Of a stretch of 64,000 bases of DNA, positions 3,048-64,000 are shown piece by piece (positions within the stretch are counted from its first letter, which is position 1; each line of letters starts with the position of its first letter). A model generated the notes under the pieces. That model had not been told where the DNA came from and ran no database searches. It saw nothing but the letters and a program-made list of their open reading frames with translations. The stretch comes from Heptranchias perlo (Eukaryota): assembly GCF_035084215.1 (NCBI RefSeq), contig NC_090330.1, positions 76,880,001 to 76,944,000 of the forward strand, written 5' to 3'. Both the position numbers and the translations under genes were made by a program.

Positions 3048-4647
3048 TCATAGAATCATAGAAGTTACAACATGGAAACAGGCCCTTCGGCCCAACATGT
3101 CCATGTCGCCCAGTTTATACCACTAAGCTAGTCCCAATTGCCTGCACTTGGCCCATATCCCTCGATACCCATCTTCCCCATGTAACTGTCCAAATGCTTT
3201 TTAAAAGACAAAATTGTACCCGCCTCGACTACTGCCTCTGGCAGCTCGTTCCAGACACTCACCACCCTTTGAGTGAAAAAATTGCCCCTCTGGATCCTTT
3301 TGTATCTCTCCCCTCTCACCTTAAATCTGTGCCCCCTCGTTATAGACTCCCCTACCTTTGGGAAAAGATTTTGACTATCGACCTTATCTATGCCCCTCAT
3401 TATTTTATAGACTTCTATAAGATCACCCCTTAACCTCTTACTCTCCAGGGAAAAAAGTCCCAGTCTGTCTAACCTCTCCCTGTAAGTCAAACCATCAAGT
3501 CCCGGTAGCATCCTAGTAAATCTTTTCTGCACTCTTTCTAGTTTAATAATATCCTTTCTATAATAGGGTGACCAGAACTGTACACAGTACTCCAAGTGTG
3601 GCCTCACCAATGCCCTGTACAACTTCAACAAGACATCCCAACTCCTGCATTCAATGTTCTGACCAATGAAACCAAGCATGCTGAATGCCTTCTTCACCAC
3701 CCTATCCACCTGTGACTCCACTTTCAAGGAGCTATGAACCTGTACTCCTAGATCTCTTTGTTCTATAACTCTCCCCAACGCCCTACCATTAACGGAGTAG
3801 GTCCTGGCCCGATTCGATCTACCAAAATGCATCACCTCACATTTATCTAAATTAAACTCCATCTGCCATTCATCGGCCCACTGGCCCAATTTATCAAGAT
3901 CCCGTTGCAATCCTAGATAACCTTCTTCACTGTCCACAATGCCACCAATCTTGGTGTCATCTGCAAACTTACTAACCATGCCTCCTAAATTCTCATCCAA
4001 ATCATTAATATAAATAACAAATAACAGCGGACCCAGCACCGATCCCTGAGGCACACCGCTGGACACAGGCATCCAGTTTGAAAAACAACCCTCGACAACC
4101 ACCCTCTGTCTTCTGTCGTCAAGCCAATTTTGTATCCAATTGGCTACCTCACCTTGGATCCCATGAGATTTAACCTTATGTAACAACCTACCATGCGGTA
4201 CCTTGTCAAATGCTTTGCTGAAGTCCATGTAGACCACGTCTACTGCACAGCCCTCATCTATCTTCTTGGTTACCCCTTCAAAAAACTCAATCAAATTCGT
4301 GAGACATGATTTTCCTCTCACAAAACCATGCTGACTGTTCCTAATTAGTCCCTGCCTCTCCAAATGCCTGTAGATCCTGTCCCTCAGAATACCCTCTAAC
4401 AACTTACCCACTACAGATGTCAGGCTCACTGGTCTGTAGTTCCCAGGCTTTTCCCTGCCGCCCTTCTTAAACAAAGGCACAACATTTGCTACCCTCCAAT
4501 CTTCAGGCACCTCACCTGTTGCGGTGGATGATTCAAATATCTCTGCTAGGGCACCCGCAATTTCCTCCCTAACCTCCCTTAACGTCCTGGGATACATTTC
4601 ATCATGTCTCGGAGATTTATCTACCTTGATGCGCGTTAAGACTTCCA
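3048..4647 (-). mobile_element. Young 5'-truncated CR1 LINE (different subfamily) nested in the 3' UTR of the previous element
   Basis: Stop-free 489-aa RT ORF 3128-4597; (gaatcata)n tail at about 3045-3063. Confidence 0.95.
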
Positions 4648-36560: not shown

Positions 36561-39500
36561 GATTCCTGGGACATTGGGACCGGTTCTGGGGAAGGTGGGA
36601 CCTGTACAAGCGTGACGGGTTACACCCGAGCAGGACTGGGACCAATGTCCTCGCGGGGGTGTTTGCTAGTGCTGTTGGGGAAAGTTTAAACTAGAGTGGC
36701 AGGGGGATGGGAACCTGAGCGGGGAGTCAGAAGAGAATAAAGCTGAGAGCAGCAAGAGAGGGGAAGACCCAGGGGAAATCTACAATACAAATAGTACAAA
36801 CAGTTGTTCAATAACAAGTGAAAGGGAAAAGCGTAGAACAGCAGAAAGAAAGTGTACTTTAGGCACGACAGATAAAATAAAAACTAGAAGGCGCAAGGCG
36901 ATTAACCCAGCATCAAAGCTGTGGCAGGGGGTTGGGAACCTGAGCAGGGAGACAGAGGAAAGCGTGTCAGGAAGGGACAGAAGGTATGGAGTAAAAGGTA
37001 AAGTGTTAAAAAAGGAAGAAGCAGGAACTAAGTGTCACAAAACATATTTGAAAGTTCTTTATCTGAATGCACGTAGCATTCGTAACAAAATGGACGAGTT
37101 AACGGCACAAATAACTATGTATGGGTATGATCTTGTGGCCATTACAGAAACATGGCTGCAGGGTGACAATGACTGGGAATTAAATATGCCAGGGTATTTA
37201 ACAATCAGGAAGGACAGGCAGGAAGGAAGGGGAGGTGGGGTGGTTATGTTAATAAAGGAAGGAATTACTGTAATACAGAGAAATGATATTGGGACAAAAG
37301 ATCAGGACAATGAAACAGTTTGGGTAGAGATAAGGAATAATAAGGGGAAAAAAAACATTAGTGGGCGTAGTATATAGGCCTCCTATAGTTGCAACTCTGC
37401 TGGAAGAAGTATTAATCAGGAAATAGTCGGGGCATGTAATAAGGGAACAGCTATAATTATGGGGGATTTTAACTATCATATTAACTGGACAAATCAAATT
37501 GGGCAGGGCAGCCTTGAGGAAGAGTTTATTGAGTGTATTAGGGATGGATTTCTTGAGCAGTATGTAACTGATCCTACAAGGGGGCAGGCAACCTTGGACC
37601 TGGTCCTGTGCAATGAGCCAGGATTAATTAATAATGTCCTAGTTAAGGATCCCCTTGGAATGAGTGACCATAACATGGTTACATTCCATATCCAATTAGA
37701 GGGTGAGAAGGTTGGTTCTCAAACAAGCGTAGGCGTACTGAGCTTGAATAAAGGAGACTCTGATGGTATGAGAGCGGAATTGATTAAAGTGGACTGGGAA
37801 AATAGATTAAAGGGTAAGATGGTACATGAGCAGTGGTGTTCATTTAAGGAGTTATTTTACAACTTTCAAAAAATATATATTCCACTGAGGGGAAAAAAGG
37901 GTGTAAAAGAAATGACAGCCATCTGTGGCTAAGTAAAGAAATTAAGGATAGTATCCGACTAAAATCAAGGACATATAAGGGAGCCAAACTTAGTGGGAGG
38001 ATAGAAGATTGGGAAGTGTTCAAAAGACAGCAAAAAGTAACTAAAGGATTGATTAAGAAAGGGAAGATAGATTATGAAAATAAATTAGCAAAAAATATAA
38101 AAACAGATAGCAAGAGTTTCTACAGTTATATAAAAAGAAAAAGGGTGGCTAAGGCAAACGTAGGTCCCTTAGAGGATGAGACCGGGAAATTAATGGTGGG
38201 AAACATGGAGATGGCAAAAATGCTGAACAAATATTTTGTTTCAGTCTTTACGGTAGAGGACACTAAGAATATCCCAACACTGGACAAACAGGGGGATCTA
38301 GGGGGGGGAGGAGCTAAATACGATTAAAATCACTAAGGAATTGGTACTCAGTAAAAATAATGGGACTCAAGGCGGATAACTCCCCTGGACCTGATGGCTT
38401 ACATCTGAGGGTCTTGAGGGAAGTGGCAGTAGGGATTGTGGATGCTTTGGTAATAATTTTCCAAAATACTCTGGACTCGGCAAAGGTCCCGGCAGATTGG
38501 AAAACTGCTAATGTAACACCCTTATTTAAAAAGGGTAGCAGGCAGAAGGCTGGAAATTATAGACCAGTTAGCCTAACATCTGTGGTGGGTAAAATTTTAG
38601 AGTTTATTAAGGAGACAGTAACGGAACATTTGGATAAACATAATTTAATAGGACAAAGTCAGCATGGCTTTATGAAGGGGAAGTCATGTCTGACAAATTT
38701 GCTTGAGTTCTTTGAGGACATAACGTACAGGGTGGATAAAGGGGAACCAGTGGACGTAGTGTATTTAGACTTCCAGAAGGCATTCGACAAGGTGCCACAT
38801 AAAAGATTGTTGCTCAAGATAAAGAATCACTGGATTGGGGGTAATATTCTGGCATGGGTGGAGGATTGGTTATCTAACAGGAAGCAGAGAATTGGGATAA
38901 ATGGTTCATTCTCGAACCGGCAACCAGTAGCCAGTGGTGTTCCACAGGGGTTGGTGCTGGGTCCCCAACTCTTTACAATCTATATTAACGATTTGGAGGA
39001 CGGGACCGAGTGTAGCGTATCAAAGTTTGCAGATGATACAAAGATGGGAGGGAAAGTAGAGAGTGAGGAGGACATAAAAAACCTACAAGGGGATATAGAC
39101 TGGCTGGGTGAGTGGGCGGAGATTTGGCAGATGCAATACAATATTGGAAAATGTGAGGTTATGCACTTTGGCAGGAAAAATCAGAGAGCAAGTTATTATC
39201 TTAATGGCGAGAAACTGGAAAGTACTGCAGTACAAAGGGATCTGGGGGTCCTAGTGCAAGAAAATCAAAAAGTTAGTATGCAGGTGCAGCAGGTGATCAA
39301 GAAGGCCAACGGAATGTTGGCTTTTATTGCTCGGGGGATAGAATATAAAAACAGGGAGGTATTGCAGCAATTATATAAGGTATTGGTGAGACCACACCTG
39401 GAATACTGCATACAGTTTTGGTGTCCATACTTAAGAAAAGACATACTTGCTCTCGAGGCAGTACAAAGAAGGTTCACTCGGTTAATCCCGGGATGAGGTG

Positions 39501-40875: not shown

Positions 40876-40941
40876 GGGGGAAGAGGAATAAGTGAATTTT
40901 TGCTATCAAATGTTATAATACTCATTTATTTTTCTTAATAG

Positions 40942-41283
40942 GTGCCTTGGCTGGACCAGTTGTTGTTGATCGAAAGGTATCTGCAATTTTGGGCAAAAAT
41001 GCCACCTTAAAGTGTTTGGTTATGGTGAAAGAAACTGTAACTCAGATCTCCTGGGAGAAGCAAGAACATGGGACCACAGAAACTGTTGCAGTGTTTAATC
41101 CTATTTATGGAATCTCAATCCAAGGGAACTATCCAGGAAGAGCTGTATTCACAAACCCATCTTTAAAAGATGCAACAATTCTTATTACCAAAGTTGGGTT
41201 TTCAGATTCTGGAAACTACATCTGCAAGGTGGCCACTTTCCCATTGGGAAATTACCAAGAAACAAGCACTGTGACTGTGATCG
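40942..41283 (+). CDS. nectin3: Nectin-3 internal exon encoding the Ig V-type domain (342 nt, phase 1-1)
   Basis: tttttcttaatag| acceptor and |gtatgt donor; GALAGPVVV..GKNATLKC..TQISWEK..DATI...FSDSGNYICKVATFPLGN matches vertebrate NECTIN3 (PVRL3) as I recall it. Confidence 0.93.
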
Positions 41284-41583
41284 GTATGTATCCTATTAAA
41301 ACCCTGTACTAGTAGAAATTAGAAGATTTATTTTGTAATTTGTCCTGTTTGTCCCTGAGTCTTCGATTATCTGCCTACCTATCTATTAACACCAATTTGC
41401 CACTAAAGACACTCAAAAAAAAAAGTCATTGCAACAAAAACTAATTAGTAATACAAATGCTGGGTAGTAAATGAGATTTAAGCCACCCGATTGGTACTTT
41501 CTGGTACAGATTTTATACTTCTAGATATGCTAACATATTGCAGAGCTGTTTAAAAGAAAGAACAAATAAAGTTGCATTTATAT

Positions 41584-51149: not shown

Positions 51150-52086
51150 TCCGAAAGGCAGAGAAAGAGAGAGAATGACCAGTTGTATTAAAAACAGGTA
51201 ACTTTTTTTCGCTGGTGGGGTTACATGTAGCGTGGCATGAACCCAAGATCCCGGTTGAGGCCGTCCTCATGGGTGCGGAACTTGGCTATCAATTTCTGCT
51301 CGACGATTTTGCGTTGTCGTGTGTCTCGAAGGCCGCCTTGGAGAACGCTTACCCGAAGATCGGAGGCTGAATGTCCTTGACTGCTGAAGTGTTCCCCGAC
51401 TGGGAGGGAACCCTCCTGTCTGGCGATTGTTGCGCGGTGTCCGTTCATCCGTTGTCGCAGTGTCTGCATGGTCTCGCCGATGTACCATGCTCCGGGGCAT
51501 CCTTTCCTGCAACGTATGAGGTAGACAACGTTGGCCGTGTCGCAGGAGTATGAACCATGTATCTGGTGGGTGGTGTCCTCTCGTGTGATGGTGGTATCTG
51601 TGTCGATGATCTGGCATGTCTTGCAGAGGTTGCTGTGGCAGGGTTGTGTGGTGTCGTGGACACTGTTCTCCTGAAAGCTGGGTAATTTGCTGCGAACGAT
51701 GGTCTGTTTGAGGTTAGGTGGCTGTTTGAAGGCGAGTAGTGGAGGCGTAGGGATGGCCTTAGCGAGGTGTTCGTCGTCATCGATGACCTGTTGAAGGCTG
51801 CGAAGAACATGGTGTAGTTTCTCCGCTCCTGGGAAGTACTGGACGACGAAGGGTACTCTGTTGGTTGTGTCCCGTGTTTGTCTTCTGAGGAGGTCTATGC
51901 GATTTTTCGCTGTGGCAGTTGGAAAGATTATCTATAATCACCAGGCATTGTTCTCAGACTACATATGCTGTACCTTTATGGAATCCCTCACTCACATGAC
52001 GAAGGAGGAAGCCTCCGAAAGCTTGTGATTTCAAATAAAACTGTTGGACTATAACCTGGTGTTGTAAGACTCCTTACATTTGTCCA
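50829..52086 (-). mobile_element. Penelope-like element (Neptune-type), 5'-truncated with inverted pLTR
   Basis: Inverted arms 50860-51023 and 51914-52086; TSD TTAATAAAG (up to 13 bp with microhomology); internal (GA)n; GIY-YIG ORF. Confidence 0.92.
51221..51913 (-). CDS. PLE ORF C-terminal part: RT thumb/linker, Cys-rich motif and GIY-YIG endonuclease (open frame, 5'-truncated)
   Basis: Manual translation ...PFVVQYFPG...PPNLKQTIVRSKL...PCHSNLCKTC...SCDTANVVYLIRCRKGCPGAWYIGET-MQTLRQRMNGHR...GLNRD. Confidence 0.85.
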   Translation of the reverse strand, partial: TAKNRIDLLRRQTRDTTNRVPFVVQYFPGAEKLHHVLRSLQQVIDDDEHLAKAIPTPPLLAFKQPPNLKQTIVRSKLPSFQENSVHDTTQPCHSNLCKTCQIIDTDTTITREDTTHQIHGSYSCDTANVVYLIRCRKGCPGAWYIGETMQTLRQRMNGHRATIARQEGSLPVGEHFSSQGHSASDLRVSVLQGGLRDTRQRKIVEQKLIAKFRTHEDGLNRDLGFMPRYM

Positions 52087-56455: not shown

Positions 56456-57460
56456 TGTACAGTTCAAAATGTTCATTTAGACTCTGGTCTAATTTACAAA
56501 TGCAGCATGTCTAATTGTTCTGCTGAATATATATTCACATTTCAAATGGACAAAATAAGAACATTTTCGCATGGCCAGCATAATGCTTTACATTGTTGCA
56601 TATCATGGCATTGACTTGCCTCAGTCCCTCAAATATATTGGAGTTACCAGCAAAATGTTCTTTCAGCAGTATCTTTCAGACCAGTTCAAGGAAGAAAAAT
56701 TATTTTGCTTATATTGGACACCTCACAAATTGAGTGCTTTCTCCAAGGAGCTGCACAGTAACGGCATGAGGATAATCCAGTCTTGGGCATGGTGCTAGAG
56801 TGCTCGGTGCTATGAAGTTCTATCTCACCCAGTGTTGATGAATTTTGAGAATCTAGTAAGCCAAAAAATTATACAGGTTTTTCACCTTCAGTGCCCATGT
56901 TTCTTCATGTGTGAGCTTAAAAGTCAGTATTGGGTTATTCATCCATAAGAGGCACCACAACTGAAACGCATTCTGTCCTCGCTCAGCATTCAAATTTGTA
57001 CTTTCCAGGTGTAACTGGATGATAAGCAGAAGTCCTGACTGCCTGATTTTTTTCCTCTATATAGCTCCACACCTCTTGTGTAATGCCACGTACAGCTTTA
57101 CCATTACACTGAATTCATGTCAGATATCCACATAAAAAATACTACCTGAACATAATGTAAAATGATTGAACCTAACATGTAATTGTGTTAGTTTTCATGC
57201 CTTTTGAATCTTTTGAAATAGTATAATTGAATTTAGATTTATTATGAGTATGAATGGAAATATTGTAAATCATTAGGCAGCACCAACTATTCATATAAGT
57301 GATGGTATCACAAATACACACTTAACGGGTGAAACTCCCCACCAGTAGTGCACATTTGTAGAATCAGCTGTGTCTAAGTAAATGTTCAACAGTGCTACAA
57401 TATTTTGTGACTACTCTCAGTTGCACTATTCTACAGACTCATTTTTTATTACTTTTATAG

Positions 57461-57760
57461 TTGAACCCATAATAACTGTGGGAGGTGGCCCTGAACCACT
57501 TGTAGATGGTGCCAATGAGACCGTTGCAGCAGTATGCACAGCAGCCAATGGAAAACCTGAAGCAGTTGTTTTCTGGGAAACCGATCTCATTGGAGAACAA
57601 CAGCAGACCAAGATTTCTGCTCCAAATGAAACTGTGACTGTTGTTAATCAGTTCAAGATCATTCCGTCCCGATTTGTGAGGAAGAGACCAATCACCTGCA
57701 TAGTGGTACATCCACCACTGAATACCAGTACTCGAGTCCCATATATCTTGGATGTACAGT
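57461..57760 (+). CDS. nectin3: Nectin-3 internal exon encoding the first Ig C-type domain (300 nt, phase 1-1)
   Basis: ttattacttttatag| acceptor and |gtaagt donor; VEP..GP..LVDGANETVAAVCTAANGKP...PNETVTV...PSRF..ITCIVVHP..ILDVQ matches NECTIN3; splices in frame to the upstream exon (G|TT = Val). Confidence 0.93.
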
Positions 57761-58247
57761 GTAAGTACCTGATGTGTAAATCTGAATATACTGTATAATT
57801 GAAGTTATAATTAGCACAGATCTAATATCAGTAAGTTTGATACTTAAAAATAACATTGTCCTACTGGCGTTATTTTAGTTTACTCATGCTTTCTCAAATT
57901 GGAAGTGTATCCTAAAAGTGCAGTGAAATGTATTTTAAAATTTAGTCATCAAACGTGCTTTGTACAACCATTACATTAAAATAAAATTGATAGAATTCTG
58001 GATGTTTAAAGATATTATAGGTTTGACTGACATTTTGGAGCTTGATTTTTAAATGGCAGCTTATATAAAGATGATGTAGAATGCCAATGCTGAGCAGGAG
58101 ACAGAAAGTTGAGGGGGAAGCATGCTCGGAGTCGTGTTTCTAGGTATTTGAAAGCAGAGAAGGAAGTAGCAAGCAGAAGAACCTAGGAATGGAGCCCAAG
58201 AAGGCATTGGCATAGTGGAGGAAAGAGCAGCCACCAATGGTGGAGTT

Positions 58248-60747: not shown

Positions 60748-63700
60748 GCCCATCGTGTCCGCGCCGGCCATCAAGCCCTGTCTAATCTAATCCCATATTC
60801 CAGCATTTGGTCCGTAGCCTTGTATGCTATGGCATTTCAAGTGCTCATCCAAATGCTTCTTGAATGTTGTGAGGGTTCCTGCCTCCACAACCCTTTCAGG
60901 CAGTGAGTTCCAGACTCCAACCACCCTCTGGGTGAAAAAGTTCTTTCTCAAATCCCCTCTAAACCTCCCGCCTTTTACCTTGAATCTATGGCCCCTTGTT
61001 ATAGAACCCTCAACGAAGGGAAAAAGCTCCTTAGTATCCATCCTATCTGTGCCCCTCATAATTTTGTACACCTCAATCATGTCCCCCCTCAGTCTCCTCT
61101 GCTCCAAGGAAAACAAACCCAATCTTCCCAGTCTCTCTTCATAGCTGAAGCGCTCCAGCCCTGGTAACATCCTGGTGAATCTCCTCTGCACCCTCTCCAA
61201 AGCGATCACATCCTTCCTGTAGCGTGGCGACCAGAACTGCTCACAGTACTCCAGCCGTGGCCTAACCAGTGCTCTATACAGCTCCATCATAACCTCCCTG
61301 CTCTTATATTCTATGCCTCGGCCAATAAAGGCAAGCATCCCATATGCCTTCTTTACCACCCTATCTACCTGTTCCGCCGCCCTCAGGGATCTGTGAACTT
61401 GCACACCAAGATCCCTCTGACCCTCTGTCTTGCCTAGGGTCCTCCCATTCATTGTGTATTCCCTTGCCTTGTTAGTCCCTCCAAAGTGTATCACCTCGCA
61501 CTTTTCCGGGTTAAATTCCATTTGCCACTGTTCCGCCCATCTGACCAACCCATCTATATCGTCCTGCAGACTGAGGCTATCCTCCTCGCTATTTACCACC
61601 CTACCAATTTTTGTATCATCAGCGAACTTACTGATCATACCTTTTACATTCATATCCAAGTCGTTAATGTAGACCACAAACAGCAAGGGACCCAGCACCG
61701 ATCCCTGTGGTACCCCACTGGCCACAGGCTTCCAGTCATAAAAACAACCTTCGACCATCACCCTCTGCCTTCTGCCACTAAGCCAGTTTTGTATCCAAAG
61801 TGCCAAGGCACCCTGGATTCCATGGGCTCGTACCTTCTTGACCAGTCTCCTGTGCGGGACTTTGTCGAAGGCCTTACTGAAATCCATGCATACCACATCC
61901 ACTGCGTTACCCTCATCCACACCCCCTCAAAAAATTCAATCAAATTAGTCAGACATGATCTTCCCTTGACAAAGCCATGTTGACTATCCCTGATTAATCC
62001 TTGCTTCTCCAAGTGGAGACTAATTTTGTCCTTCAGAATTTTTTCCAATAATTTTCCTACCACTGATGTTAGGCTCACTGGCCTGTAGTTCCCCGGTTTT
62101 TCCCTACTCCCCTTCTTGAATAATGGTACTACATTAGCGGTTCTCCAGTCCTCTGGCACATCCCCTGTGGCCAGAGAGGTTCTGAATATATGTGTTAGAG
62201 CCCCCGCAATCTCCTCCTTTGCCTCACACAGTAGCCTGGGATACATTTCGTCCGGGCCTGGGGATTTATCCATTTTTAGGCCTGCTAAAACCGCCAATAC
62301 CTCCTCCCGCTCGATGTTAATATGTTAGTATATCACAGTTCCCCTGCCGTATTTCTATGTCCACATCGTCCTTCTCCATCGTGAAAACAGATGCAAAAAA
62401 TTCATTTAGAACCCCTCCTACATCTGCCGGCTCCACACACAGATTGCCATTTTTGTCCCTAATGGGCCCTATTTTTTCCCTAGTCATCCTCTTACCCTTA
62501 ATATACTTATAAAACATCTTAGGATTTTCCTTTATTTTGCTCGCCAGTGTTATTTCATGGCCCCTCCTTGATCTCCTAATTTTTTTAAGTATCCCCCTGC
62601 ACTTTTTGTACTCCTCTAGGGCTTCCTCCGTCTTTAGCCTTTTGTATCTGCCAAAAGCCCTCCTTTTTTTCCTAATCCATTCTCGTATATCCCCTGACAT
62701 CCAAGGTTCCCTGGAGTTCTTGGAACCACCCTCGACCTTTACGGGAACATGTTGCCATTGTATGGTCTCAATCTCCCTTCTGAACGACTCCCATTGTTCC
62801 GATGCGGATTTTCCTACAAGCAGCTGATCCCAGTCCATTTTGGCCAGATCCTGCCTTATCCTATTCAAATCGGCCTTCCCCCAATTTAGAACCTTTATTT
62901 CCGGCCCCTCCCTGTCCTTTTCCATGACCACCTTAAATCTCACCGAATTATGGTCACTGTCACCAAAGTGCTCACCTACTAGCACTTCTTCCACTTGGCC
63001 GGCCACATTCCCTAGAATTAGGTCCAGTACCGCCCCCTCTCTTGTAGGACTTTCTACATGCTGGCTCAAAAAGCTCTCCTGGATGCACGTTAAGAATTTT
63101 GTACCCTCTAAGCCTTTTACACTCTGGGTATCCCAGTTAATATTGGGGAAGTTAAAATCCCCCACTATTATTACCCTATTATTTGCACAATTTTCTGAGA
63201 TTTGCCTACATATCTGTTCCTCTATCTCCCCCTGACTGTTTGGGGGCCTATTGTACACTCCCATCAAAGTGCTTGCCCCCTTTTTGTTTTTAAGCTCCAC
63301 CCATATGGCCTCATTAGAGGAACCTGCTAATATATCATCCCTCCTTATGGCAGTAATTGATTCTTTAATTAATATTGCGACCCCCCCTCCTCTTATACCT
63401 CCCCCTCTGTCTCGCCTGAAGATTCTGTACCCCGGAATATTGAGCTGCCAGTCTTGCCCCTCCCTCAACCATGTCTCTGTGACAGCAACAATATCATACT
63501 CCCATGTGTTTATCAACACCTTCAGTTCATCCACCTTATTCGCAAGACTCCTTGCATTAAAATAGATGCCATCCAGCCTTGCCCGTACATATTTGCCCTG
63601 TCTTCCAAGCTGACTTTTTTTCTTTATATTTGGCTGCACATCACCCCCTATTGTAGCTCCACTCTGTATCCCATCCCCCTGCCAAGTTAGTTTAAACCCC

Positions 63701-64000
63701 CCCCAACAGTGCTAGCAAACCTCCCCGCAAGGATATTTGTCCCGCTCTGGTTCAGGTGCAACCCGTCCGACTTGTACAAGTCCCACCTTCCCCAGAAGCA
63801 GGCCCAGTGATCCAGGAAACTGAAACCCTCCCTCCTGCACCAACTCTTTAGCCACGCATTCATCTGCTCTATTCTCCTATTTCTATACTCACTAGCCCGT
63901 GGCACTGGGAGTAATCCAGAGATTACAACCTTTGAGGTCCTGCTCTTTAATCTGCTACCTAGCTCCCTAAATTCTTGATGCAGGACCTCATCTCCCTTCC
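60748..64000 (-). mobile_element. Long CR1 LINE with ORF1 C-terminus (SGNH esterase-like) and ORF2 (APE-RT, few frameshifts); continues beyond the window
   Basis: ORF 63687-63905 (WCRREGF..DGLHLN); ORF2 pieces 62317-63639 (APE), 61758-62297 and 60787-61920 (RT). Confidence 0.95.
63687..63699 (-). promoter_or_regulatory. Candidate -1 frameshift site: overlapping G_GGU_UUA and U_UUA_AAC before the ORF1 stop
   Basis: ORF1 codons GGG GGT TTA AAC TAA; the -1 frame (TTT starting at 63696) is open into the APE ORF annotated from 63639. Confidence 0.6.

Follow-up and report, generated by a model that had tools for sequence, protein, structure and literature searches.

A candidate −1 ribosomal frameshift signal at the ORF1/ORF2 junction of CR1-type LINEs in the shark Heptranchias perlo

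How the second open reading frame (ORF2) of a two-gene long interspersed nuclear element (LINE) is translated from its message is an old question, answered so far by translational restart in L1 and SART1. It is raised again by a stretch of 64,000 nucleotides (nt) from Heptranchias perlo (RefSeq assembly GCF_035084215.1, contig NC_090330.1, positions 76,880,001 to 76,944,000; hereafter 'the window'), in which the region 63640..63720 spans the boundary between ORF1 and ORF2 of a CR1-type LINE lying on the minus strand. Judged on its letters and their conservation, this junction is probably a −1 programmed ribosomal frameshift site, with a signal of about 40 nt, which would yield an ORF1-ORF2 fusion protein. 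The CR1 label is provisional, being taken from the likeness of ORF1 to proteins of turtles, lizards, birds and frogs.

ORF1 of the minus-strand element encodes 316 amino acids, comprising a zinc-finger-like N-terminus and an SGNH/GDSL esterase that was recognised both by domain search (PF13472, E 5e-16) and, using profile A1, by its match to a LINE ORF1 esterase of known structure (PDB: 4c1b; E 3e-44). The window holds its 3' part (63687..64000), which ends G-L-N-stop, while the start lies outside (L031 4637). ORF2 encodes an APE endonuclease (PF03372, PF14529) and a reverse transcriptase (PF00078). The copy in the window is broken within ORF2, its frame being interrupted at 62319, and the reverse-transcriptase part of the same copy is found at 60787..61926 on the minus strand (PF00078, E 2e-23). 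The subfamily is nonetheless young and abundant: a 26-nt anchor just 3' of the junction is present in 1,607 copies, and an exact 50 nt of the junction region recurs in 1,244 copies across the genome. The best named match to ORF1 is 70% identical, and the genome's elements most resemble sequences from sharks and rays.

At the centre of the junction, the sequence of which had been quoted letter for letter in the initial annotation, is the slippery heptamer U_UUA_AAC (63690..63696, minus strand), in phase with ORF1 (codons GGT TTA AAC) and followed directly by the ORF1 stop codon TAA (63687..63689). Among copies this stop may be TAA, TAG or TGA, and the first codon in the −1 frame becomes CTR (Leu). 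The −1 frame, on which ORF2 lies (62317..63711), is open for 457 codons past the shift point and runs through an unconserved linker of about 44 codons into the endonuclease, with the first two endonuclease motifs, NARS at 63558 (codon 44, where APE begins) and ETW at 63477 (codon 71). As had been noted at the outset, its first Met is deep inside the domain, at 63264 (codon 142), after both motifs, so ORF2 has no usable start of its own. The first AUG 3' of the ORF1 stop is out of the ORF2 frame in 43/43 copies of the junction element's family; it falls within the G-rich block that follows (ATG at 63674-63672 in this copy) and belongs to the ORF1 frame. The same arrangement, with APE in the −1 frame, was found in 40/43, 35/37, 15/26, 13/18, 4/4, 3/3 and 3/3 copies of seven families, the linkers of which vary from 45 to 131 codons.

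We asked how far the heptamer is conserved in this one genome (3.25 Gb), to which all whole-genome counts refer. The pattern heptamer-stop-NN-TGGCAGGGG gave 16,329 matches and its reversed control none, so the junction pattern is not due to chance. When every Leu and Asn codon was allowed before the downstream block the sites numbered 17,645 (control 3), and exact TTTAAAC still made up 16,329 of them. An anchor placed upstream instead (DGxHL..Leu-Asn-stop) gave exact TTTAAAC in 11,983 of 12,733 ORF1 ends genome-wide; among the first 100 of the listed matches, 97 carried the heptamer and 3 ended AAT. The 6-7% of ends without the heptamer fit decay at four free sites, given that copies differ from their family's commonest letter at 0.5-2.9% per site. 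The first 100 copies of the subfamily, chosen by the downstream anchor alone, include 92 with the heptamer and 4 with G as its first letter, the remainder being point-changed (2) or cut off at the heptamer (2).

To compare families, 143 distinct junctions, 136 of which contain the heptamer, were sorted by their linkers into 14 clusters; one of these (F11) was a false anchor and was dropped. The resulting 13 families, together with a contig from outside this genome (L234, described below), gave 14 representatives, and all seven letters and the T that follows them are kept in 14/14. The clade whose ORF1 ends K-A-L-N, reached with a distant query and about 55% identical in ORF1, likewise keeps heptamer and stop (29/30 loci readable) and has lost W-Q-G-D-G, the ORF2-frame reading of a downstream G-rich block. 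Constraint on that peptide, a possible explanation of the conservation, therefore fails.

Nor does constraint on the ORF1 protein account for the letters. Nine families have an ORF1 end that can be read, and in 9/9 it closes with the codons NNT TTA AAC, although any two families are unlike at 7-69% of their fourfold sites; the diverged clade, different at 45-69% of such sites, is no exception. Elsewhere in ORF1 a single codon is kept in 0/9 of the other invariant Leu columns, 1/14 sixfold, 5/16 fourfold and 5/14 twofold columns, and an invariant third-position T of the kind seen in the −3 codon occurs in only 1/87 columns of variable residue. The seven letters are thus conserved beyond the needs of the protein, and the initial annotation's proposal that nucleotide-level conservation points to an RNA-level recoding signal is borne out to the extent that the heptamer is fixed where synonymous sites of ORF1 vary freely. 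Conservation explained in full by protein constraint (LN and WQGDG), which the annotation had named as grounds for refutation, is not what the comparison showed.

These data also bear on a quite different explanation, namely that the letters serve a non-decoding role, either through a constraint on the terminal Leu-Asn combined with shared ancestry or as an RNA element used in packaging, recombination or reverse transcription, and that translation of ORF2 begins within the linker at a near-cognate codon. Such codons are present there, an alignment of 37 proteins shows no variation at L315 and N316, and the likeness between families breaks off sharply at the G block, a second copy of which lies at a chimeric join (36922) in one family. 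Protein constraint, however, cannot fix synonymous letters, and a structural need for the terminal residues finds little echo in the LINE esterase structure 4c1b, the alignment of which stops at position 320 of the 324-position profile. The changes that are tolerated are those that preserve a slippery heptamer, and 29/87 distant homologues (see below) end in a residue other than N. We therefore regard a purely non-decoding role as highly unlikely.

Homologues from other organisms extend the frameshift interpretation. L-N is the ORF1 C-terminus in 77/81 homologues that have the DGxH motif 20-32 residues from the end, and it lies at a fixed distance in 76/78 homologous ORF1s from sharks, rays, a teleost, frogs, turtles, lizards and a crane. 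The residue before L in the homologues of exact spacing is of 12 chemically unlike types, among which K, Q, M and W are absent (0/78) and E is rare (3/78); one place further upstream these five residues make up 37/78, and in a thinned set the corresponding counts are 0/25 before L and 13/25 one place earlier. None of the five has a codon ending in U, and their scarcity fits a codon forced to end in that letter. Gene models that cross the junction allow the nucleotides to be deduced: four from a stork read the −1 frame as S-F-K-L-D-S-K-G-E-G and three from a poison frog as G-V-K-L-E-E-E-G-T-G, which with the A-L-N ends of their ORF1s imply U_UUA_AAC and G_UUA_AAC, each with a G-x-G at the spacing seen in the shark. 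In DNA, the 257-bp contig L234, carrying a turtle-like ORF1 end, has the heptamer, a TAA stop and a G5 run. When contigs from four other organisms are compared with the junction, four positions carry a variant at a frequency of at least 3%; just one of these falls in the heptamer, where the first letter changes from U to G. Their likeness to the window stops at 63669-63670.

L234 sits in a Jeotgalibacillus assembly and represents contamination with a vertebrate LINE, as does a shark-type ORF1 (protein P0008) labelled as a Pseudomonas hydrolase.

More distant homologues were collected with a profile search of 50%-identity representatives, which listed 150 proteins, 87 of them with a usable end. 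N is terminal in 58/87, and it is preceded by L, G or K in 56 of these 58 vs 4 of the 29 others. Where N is terminal, Q precedes G in 6/7 and a residue with purine-only codon endings precedes L in 1/48 (5/6 and 1/20 for the same two counts in a thinned set). Read back from protein only, the Q-G-N and S-K-N ends would match G_GGA_AAC and A_AAA_AAC in the same way that L-N matches U_UUA_AAC. These three heptamers are ranked among the most shift-prone for mammalian ribosomes in a passage of PMC5009743. A protein query of the shark genome itself with Q-G-N returned only L-N families among the 10 of 131 matches inspected. Scans of virus sequences gave nothing related or one chance match (L232), a scan of genome contigs for the junction returned a chance match (L233) and a genuine fragment (L234), and no family with a natural in-frame ORF1-ORF2 fusion was present among 27 longer matches, those that hold both parts being spliced gene models or frameshifted copies.

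Taken together, a slippery heptamer abutting a stop codon and an ORF2 that lies in the −1 frame and lacks any AUG fit for its start make it likely that a minority of ribosomes slip back by one base on U_UUA_AAC, producing an esterase-endonuclease-reverse transcriptase fusion. In the scheme that we infer, the tRNA-Leu and tRNA-Asn would leave UUA/AAC and pair anew with UUU/AAA. The majority of ribosomes would halt at the next codon and release the ORF1 protein, and shifted ribosomes would read L-T-W-Q-G-D-G and go on to the endonuclease across the unconserved linker. The slip is perhaps aided by slow termination at the stop codon next to the heptamer. The least certain step is the pause behind it, which might be caused by the one feature that persists 3' of the heptamer, a G run 10-14 nt away, folded into a G-quadruplex or bound by a protein.

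The candidate stimulator is a 16-nt G-rich block (63669..63684, minus strand), the G5 run of which (63679-63675) lies at that distance. Across the 14 representatives G is found at +10, +11, +12, +13 and +14 in 13, 13, 14, 12 and 12 cases and is also frequent at +6/+7 and at +17 to +19; beyond about +20 no sequence is shared. With quadruplexes allowed, the best predicted fold contains one in 11/14, mostly of two tiers and of three tiers in 2, and by G4Hunter score the stretch ranks within the top 2% of the element around it in each of the 13 shark families, and within the top 5% in L234. According to sections of PMC5009743, a minority of stimulators begin 11-15 nt from the shift site and act with trans-acting proteins, and stimulation by a natural quadruplex was anticipated, not known, as of 2016. 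A further lead is that C-rich codons of ORF1 (L031 ~4325-4340, some 633 nt before the stop and ahead of L-x-N-[KR]-Y) are able, in the WQGDG clade, to form 10-13 base pairs with the G block, which variants retain by way of G-U pairs. This stretch is the best or near-best partner of the block inside the element in four families. A preference of blocks for their own partner was sought and none was seen; the pairing, weak in the diverged clade and chosen post hoc, is no stronger than a lead.

The second G tract at the junction, a G8 run (63697..63704, minus strand), is specific to the subfamily, varies in length among copies and supplies an overlapping G_GGU_UUA (63699-63693). The initial annotation had described this tandem site as part of a shared cassette; both heptamers are indeed here, the tandem one is absent from the second element of the window (called the 36561 element) and it occurs in only 5/14 representatives, so that it is rejected as a general feature and may add to shifting in its own subfamily. 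The G run also lends itself to the proposal that the two frames are joined in RNA or DNA, by polymerase slippage on the run or by splicing into CAG/G in the G-rich block. An extra base in the run, seen in 16/81 scorable copies, places ORF1 and ORF2 in one frame, and in the junction element's family a branch-point-like CTAAC stands just 5' of CAG/G. Yet a join at CAG/G was found in 0/100 copies, AG is missing at that place in the diverged clade and L234, and most families have no long G run. A G7 run inside ORF2 expands alike (11/83 by one base), and the +1 copies fall in both classes of a single-nucleotide polymorphism. The one-base change is probably recurrent expansion, and we consider a join in RNA or DNA extremely improbable.

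Near the same run, 8/100 subfamily copies (L275-L374, contig C1) have their 5' end between −24 and +5 nt of the ORF1 stop, five of the eight between −24 and −15. A rough manual calculation based on the remainder of ORF1 predicts about 3 for the whole interval; 0/28 copies of other families have a 5' end within the 45 nt before the heptamer. This clustering, weak and noticed post hoc, might be caused by the G8 run or by a ribosome that has paused.

Several observations weigh against frameshifting. In folds predicted at the level of stem-loops, none 3' of the heptamer was more stable than those of shuffled sequences (z −1.5 to +1.6 in 14/14), and no classical stimulator was seen 5-9 nt downstream. 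The C-terminal L-N could be important to the protein. Two other invariant Asn columns of ORF1 likewise keep one codon (2/2), so AAC alone is uninformative, and four of the nine families in the synonymous-site comparison are represented by one copy. The large DNA counts all come from one genome and from related families, the DNA of bony vertebrates amounts to the 257-bp contig, the remainder there being deduced from proteins, and the Fisher tests on the distant homologues ignore relatedness. The heptamer is absent from 80 esterase loci of metagenomes, mostly invertebrate-like and some bacterial, so the site is not general to esterase-bearing elements. Finally, 18/37 copies of the abundant family F01 have an in-frame AUG overlapping the stop (UAAUG), the signature of restart in SART1.

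This last observation introduces the most serious competitor, in which ribosomes stop at the end of ORF1 and restart in the −1 frame at an overlapping codon, AUG or other, making a separate ORF2 protein. The relation of the frames fits such a restart equally well, and excerpts of two studies describe the UAAUG mechanism of SART1 (PMC3708506) and the dependence of L1 ORF2 on ORF1 translation (PMC2881922). In about 22 of the 80 metagenome loci (L063-L141; counted by eye) an ATG is likewise found two bases past the ORF1 stop, which suggests that the wider group may have switched between restart and frameshift. Among the CR1 families, however, AUG stands at the restart position in only 1/13, the others having ACT, AAT, GAG, GAA, AAG, GTA or ATT. 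When 17 natural copies are placed in a tree with the K-A-L-N clade as root, the AUG form falls inside a group of AUG-less families, and its AAG sister subfamily is equally abundant and young (19 copies; 1.8% vs 2.5% per-site difference). In the junction element's family, where scanning would meet an out-of-frame AUG first, the restart-position codon is ACT in 43/43. Restart also leaves the U before Leu, the UUA codon and the Q-G-N and S-K-N swaps unexplained. We judge it unlikely as an account of this junction, though less so than the two explanations above.

Having preferred frameshifting, we consider how much of the junction is general. The second element, on the plus strand, has a junction of the same make at 36685..36712 (family F03 type), with the same heptamer, a TAG stop and the 16-nt block. 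That block (36697-36712) is identical to the one at 63669..63684 and equally spaced from the heptamer, as the initial annotation had stated; the K-A-L-N clade and the turtle-like copy L234 have different G-rich runs in its place, so neither the exact 16 nt nor WQGDG is a requirement. Similarly, the −1-frame TAG that limits the overlap of ORF1 and ORF2 to 22 nt is present here (63712..63714, minus strand) and is common, not universal: the overlap measures 22 nt in 9/14 representatives and 10 to 169 nt in the others, and a fixed length was rejected. The two elements are clearly diverged in linker and ORF2, again as described, with 48% amino-acid identity over 128 residues of APE and 33% (ungapped) in the linker, while the last 97 nt of ORF1 are 78% identical. 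Their independence holds only in part. They belong to different families, which share one clade with 80% amino-acid identity in ORF1, and taken alone the pair is weak evidence. It is the wider comparison that makes the junction one instance of a genome-wide and probably vertebrate-wide signal.

The plus-strand element carries a second G-rich block (W-Q-G-V-G) at 36922-36937, 75 codons into its linker, and from this block onward it matches another family, of the F04 type. F03 is thus a chimeric family with its join at the G-rich block, and it occurs with two different downstream halves. Elsewhere in the window, exon-like frames at 40896-41312 and 57382-57798 (plus strand) have immunoglobulin-domain character and probably belong to a host gene with elements in its introns; we take them to be nectin-like. 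The frame at 51221-51931 (minus strand) resembles the GIY-YIG end of a Penelope-like element.

If the interpretation is correct, the reverse transcriptase of a main vertebrate LINE clade is made as a fusion with an esterase and ribonucleoprotein-forming protein at a set ratio, ORF2 annotations that start at a downstream Met are wrong, and the stimulator is of an unusual kind. A stronger version of the idea, for which our expectation is well short of even, is that CR1-type LINEs, the principal mobile elements of sharks, reptiles and birds, have made such a fusion since before the split of sharks and bony vertebrates, swapping heptamers (U_UUA_AAC, G_UUA_AAC, G_GGA_AAC, A_AAA_AAC) in additional lineages and driven by a G-tract, as a quadruplex or protein switch, and not by a pseudoknot. 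We found no proposal of frameshifting for CR1 in a literature search that did not reach the chicken and turtle CR1 papers of 1997-2001. The original papers reportedly describe closely spaced or overlapping ORFs, and an earlier suggestion of frameshifting may be contained in them.

The closest parallel to the proposed site is found in viruses. The −1 site between ORF1a and ORF1b of coronaviruses is U_UUA_AAC. In both nidoviruses and CR1 the heptamer and its phase are the same, U and G first letters seem to occur, and a polymerase is encoded in the −1 frame; the nidovirus site, however, is followed 5-9 nt 3' by a pseudoknot, and the CR1 site has a G-run 10-14 nt 3', no stem-loop that was found, and a chromosomal LINE as its host. 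The G_UUA_AAC form is that of equine arteritis virus, as one section of PMC5009743 states. The distance of the putative stimulator recalls the protein-stimulated shifts of arteriviruses (nsp1beta/PCBP) and cardioviruses, which in the same part of that source lie 11-15 nt away and have no classical pseudoknot, but the CR1 motif is G-rich and a trans-acting protein is only hypothetical. The logic resembles that of retroviral gag-pol, where the RNA-packaging protein is in frame 0 and reverse transcriptase in frame −1, with a fusion made at a set ratio; a passage of PMC11835228 puts the −1 frameshift of avian leukosis virus gag-pol at 5-10%. CR1 differs in being an element without long terminal repeats, with an APE endonuclease and an esterase in ORF1, and no protease that would cut the fusion was seen. 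Among LINEs, the dependence of ORF2 on ORF1 translation would be shared with SART1 and L1, in so far as the portions of PMC3708506 and PMC2881922 describe it, and one CR1 subfamily has UAAUG; unlike SART1, CR1 has a conserved slippery heptamer instead, and 12/13 of its families are without an AUG at the stop. Finally, the APE-type LINEs TRE5-A and TRE3-A of Dictyostelium, of another clade and host, are said in a review's sentence, given with neither slippery site nor measurement, to require a −1 frameshift for ORF2 (PMC5911963), so that the frameshift proposed here for CR1 has a precedent among LINEs.

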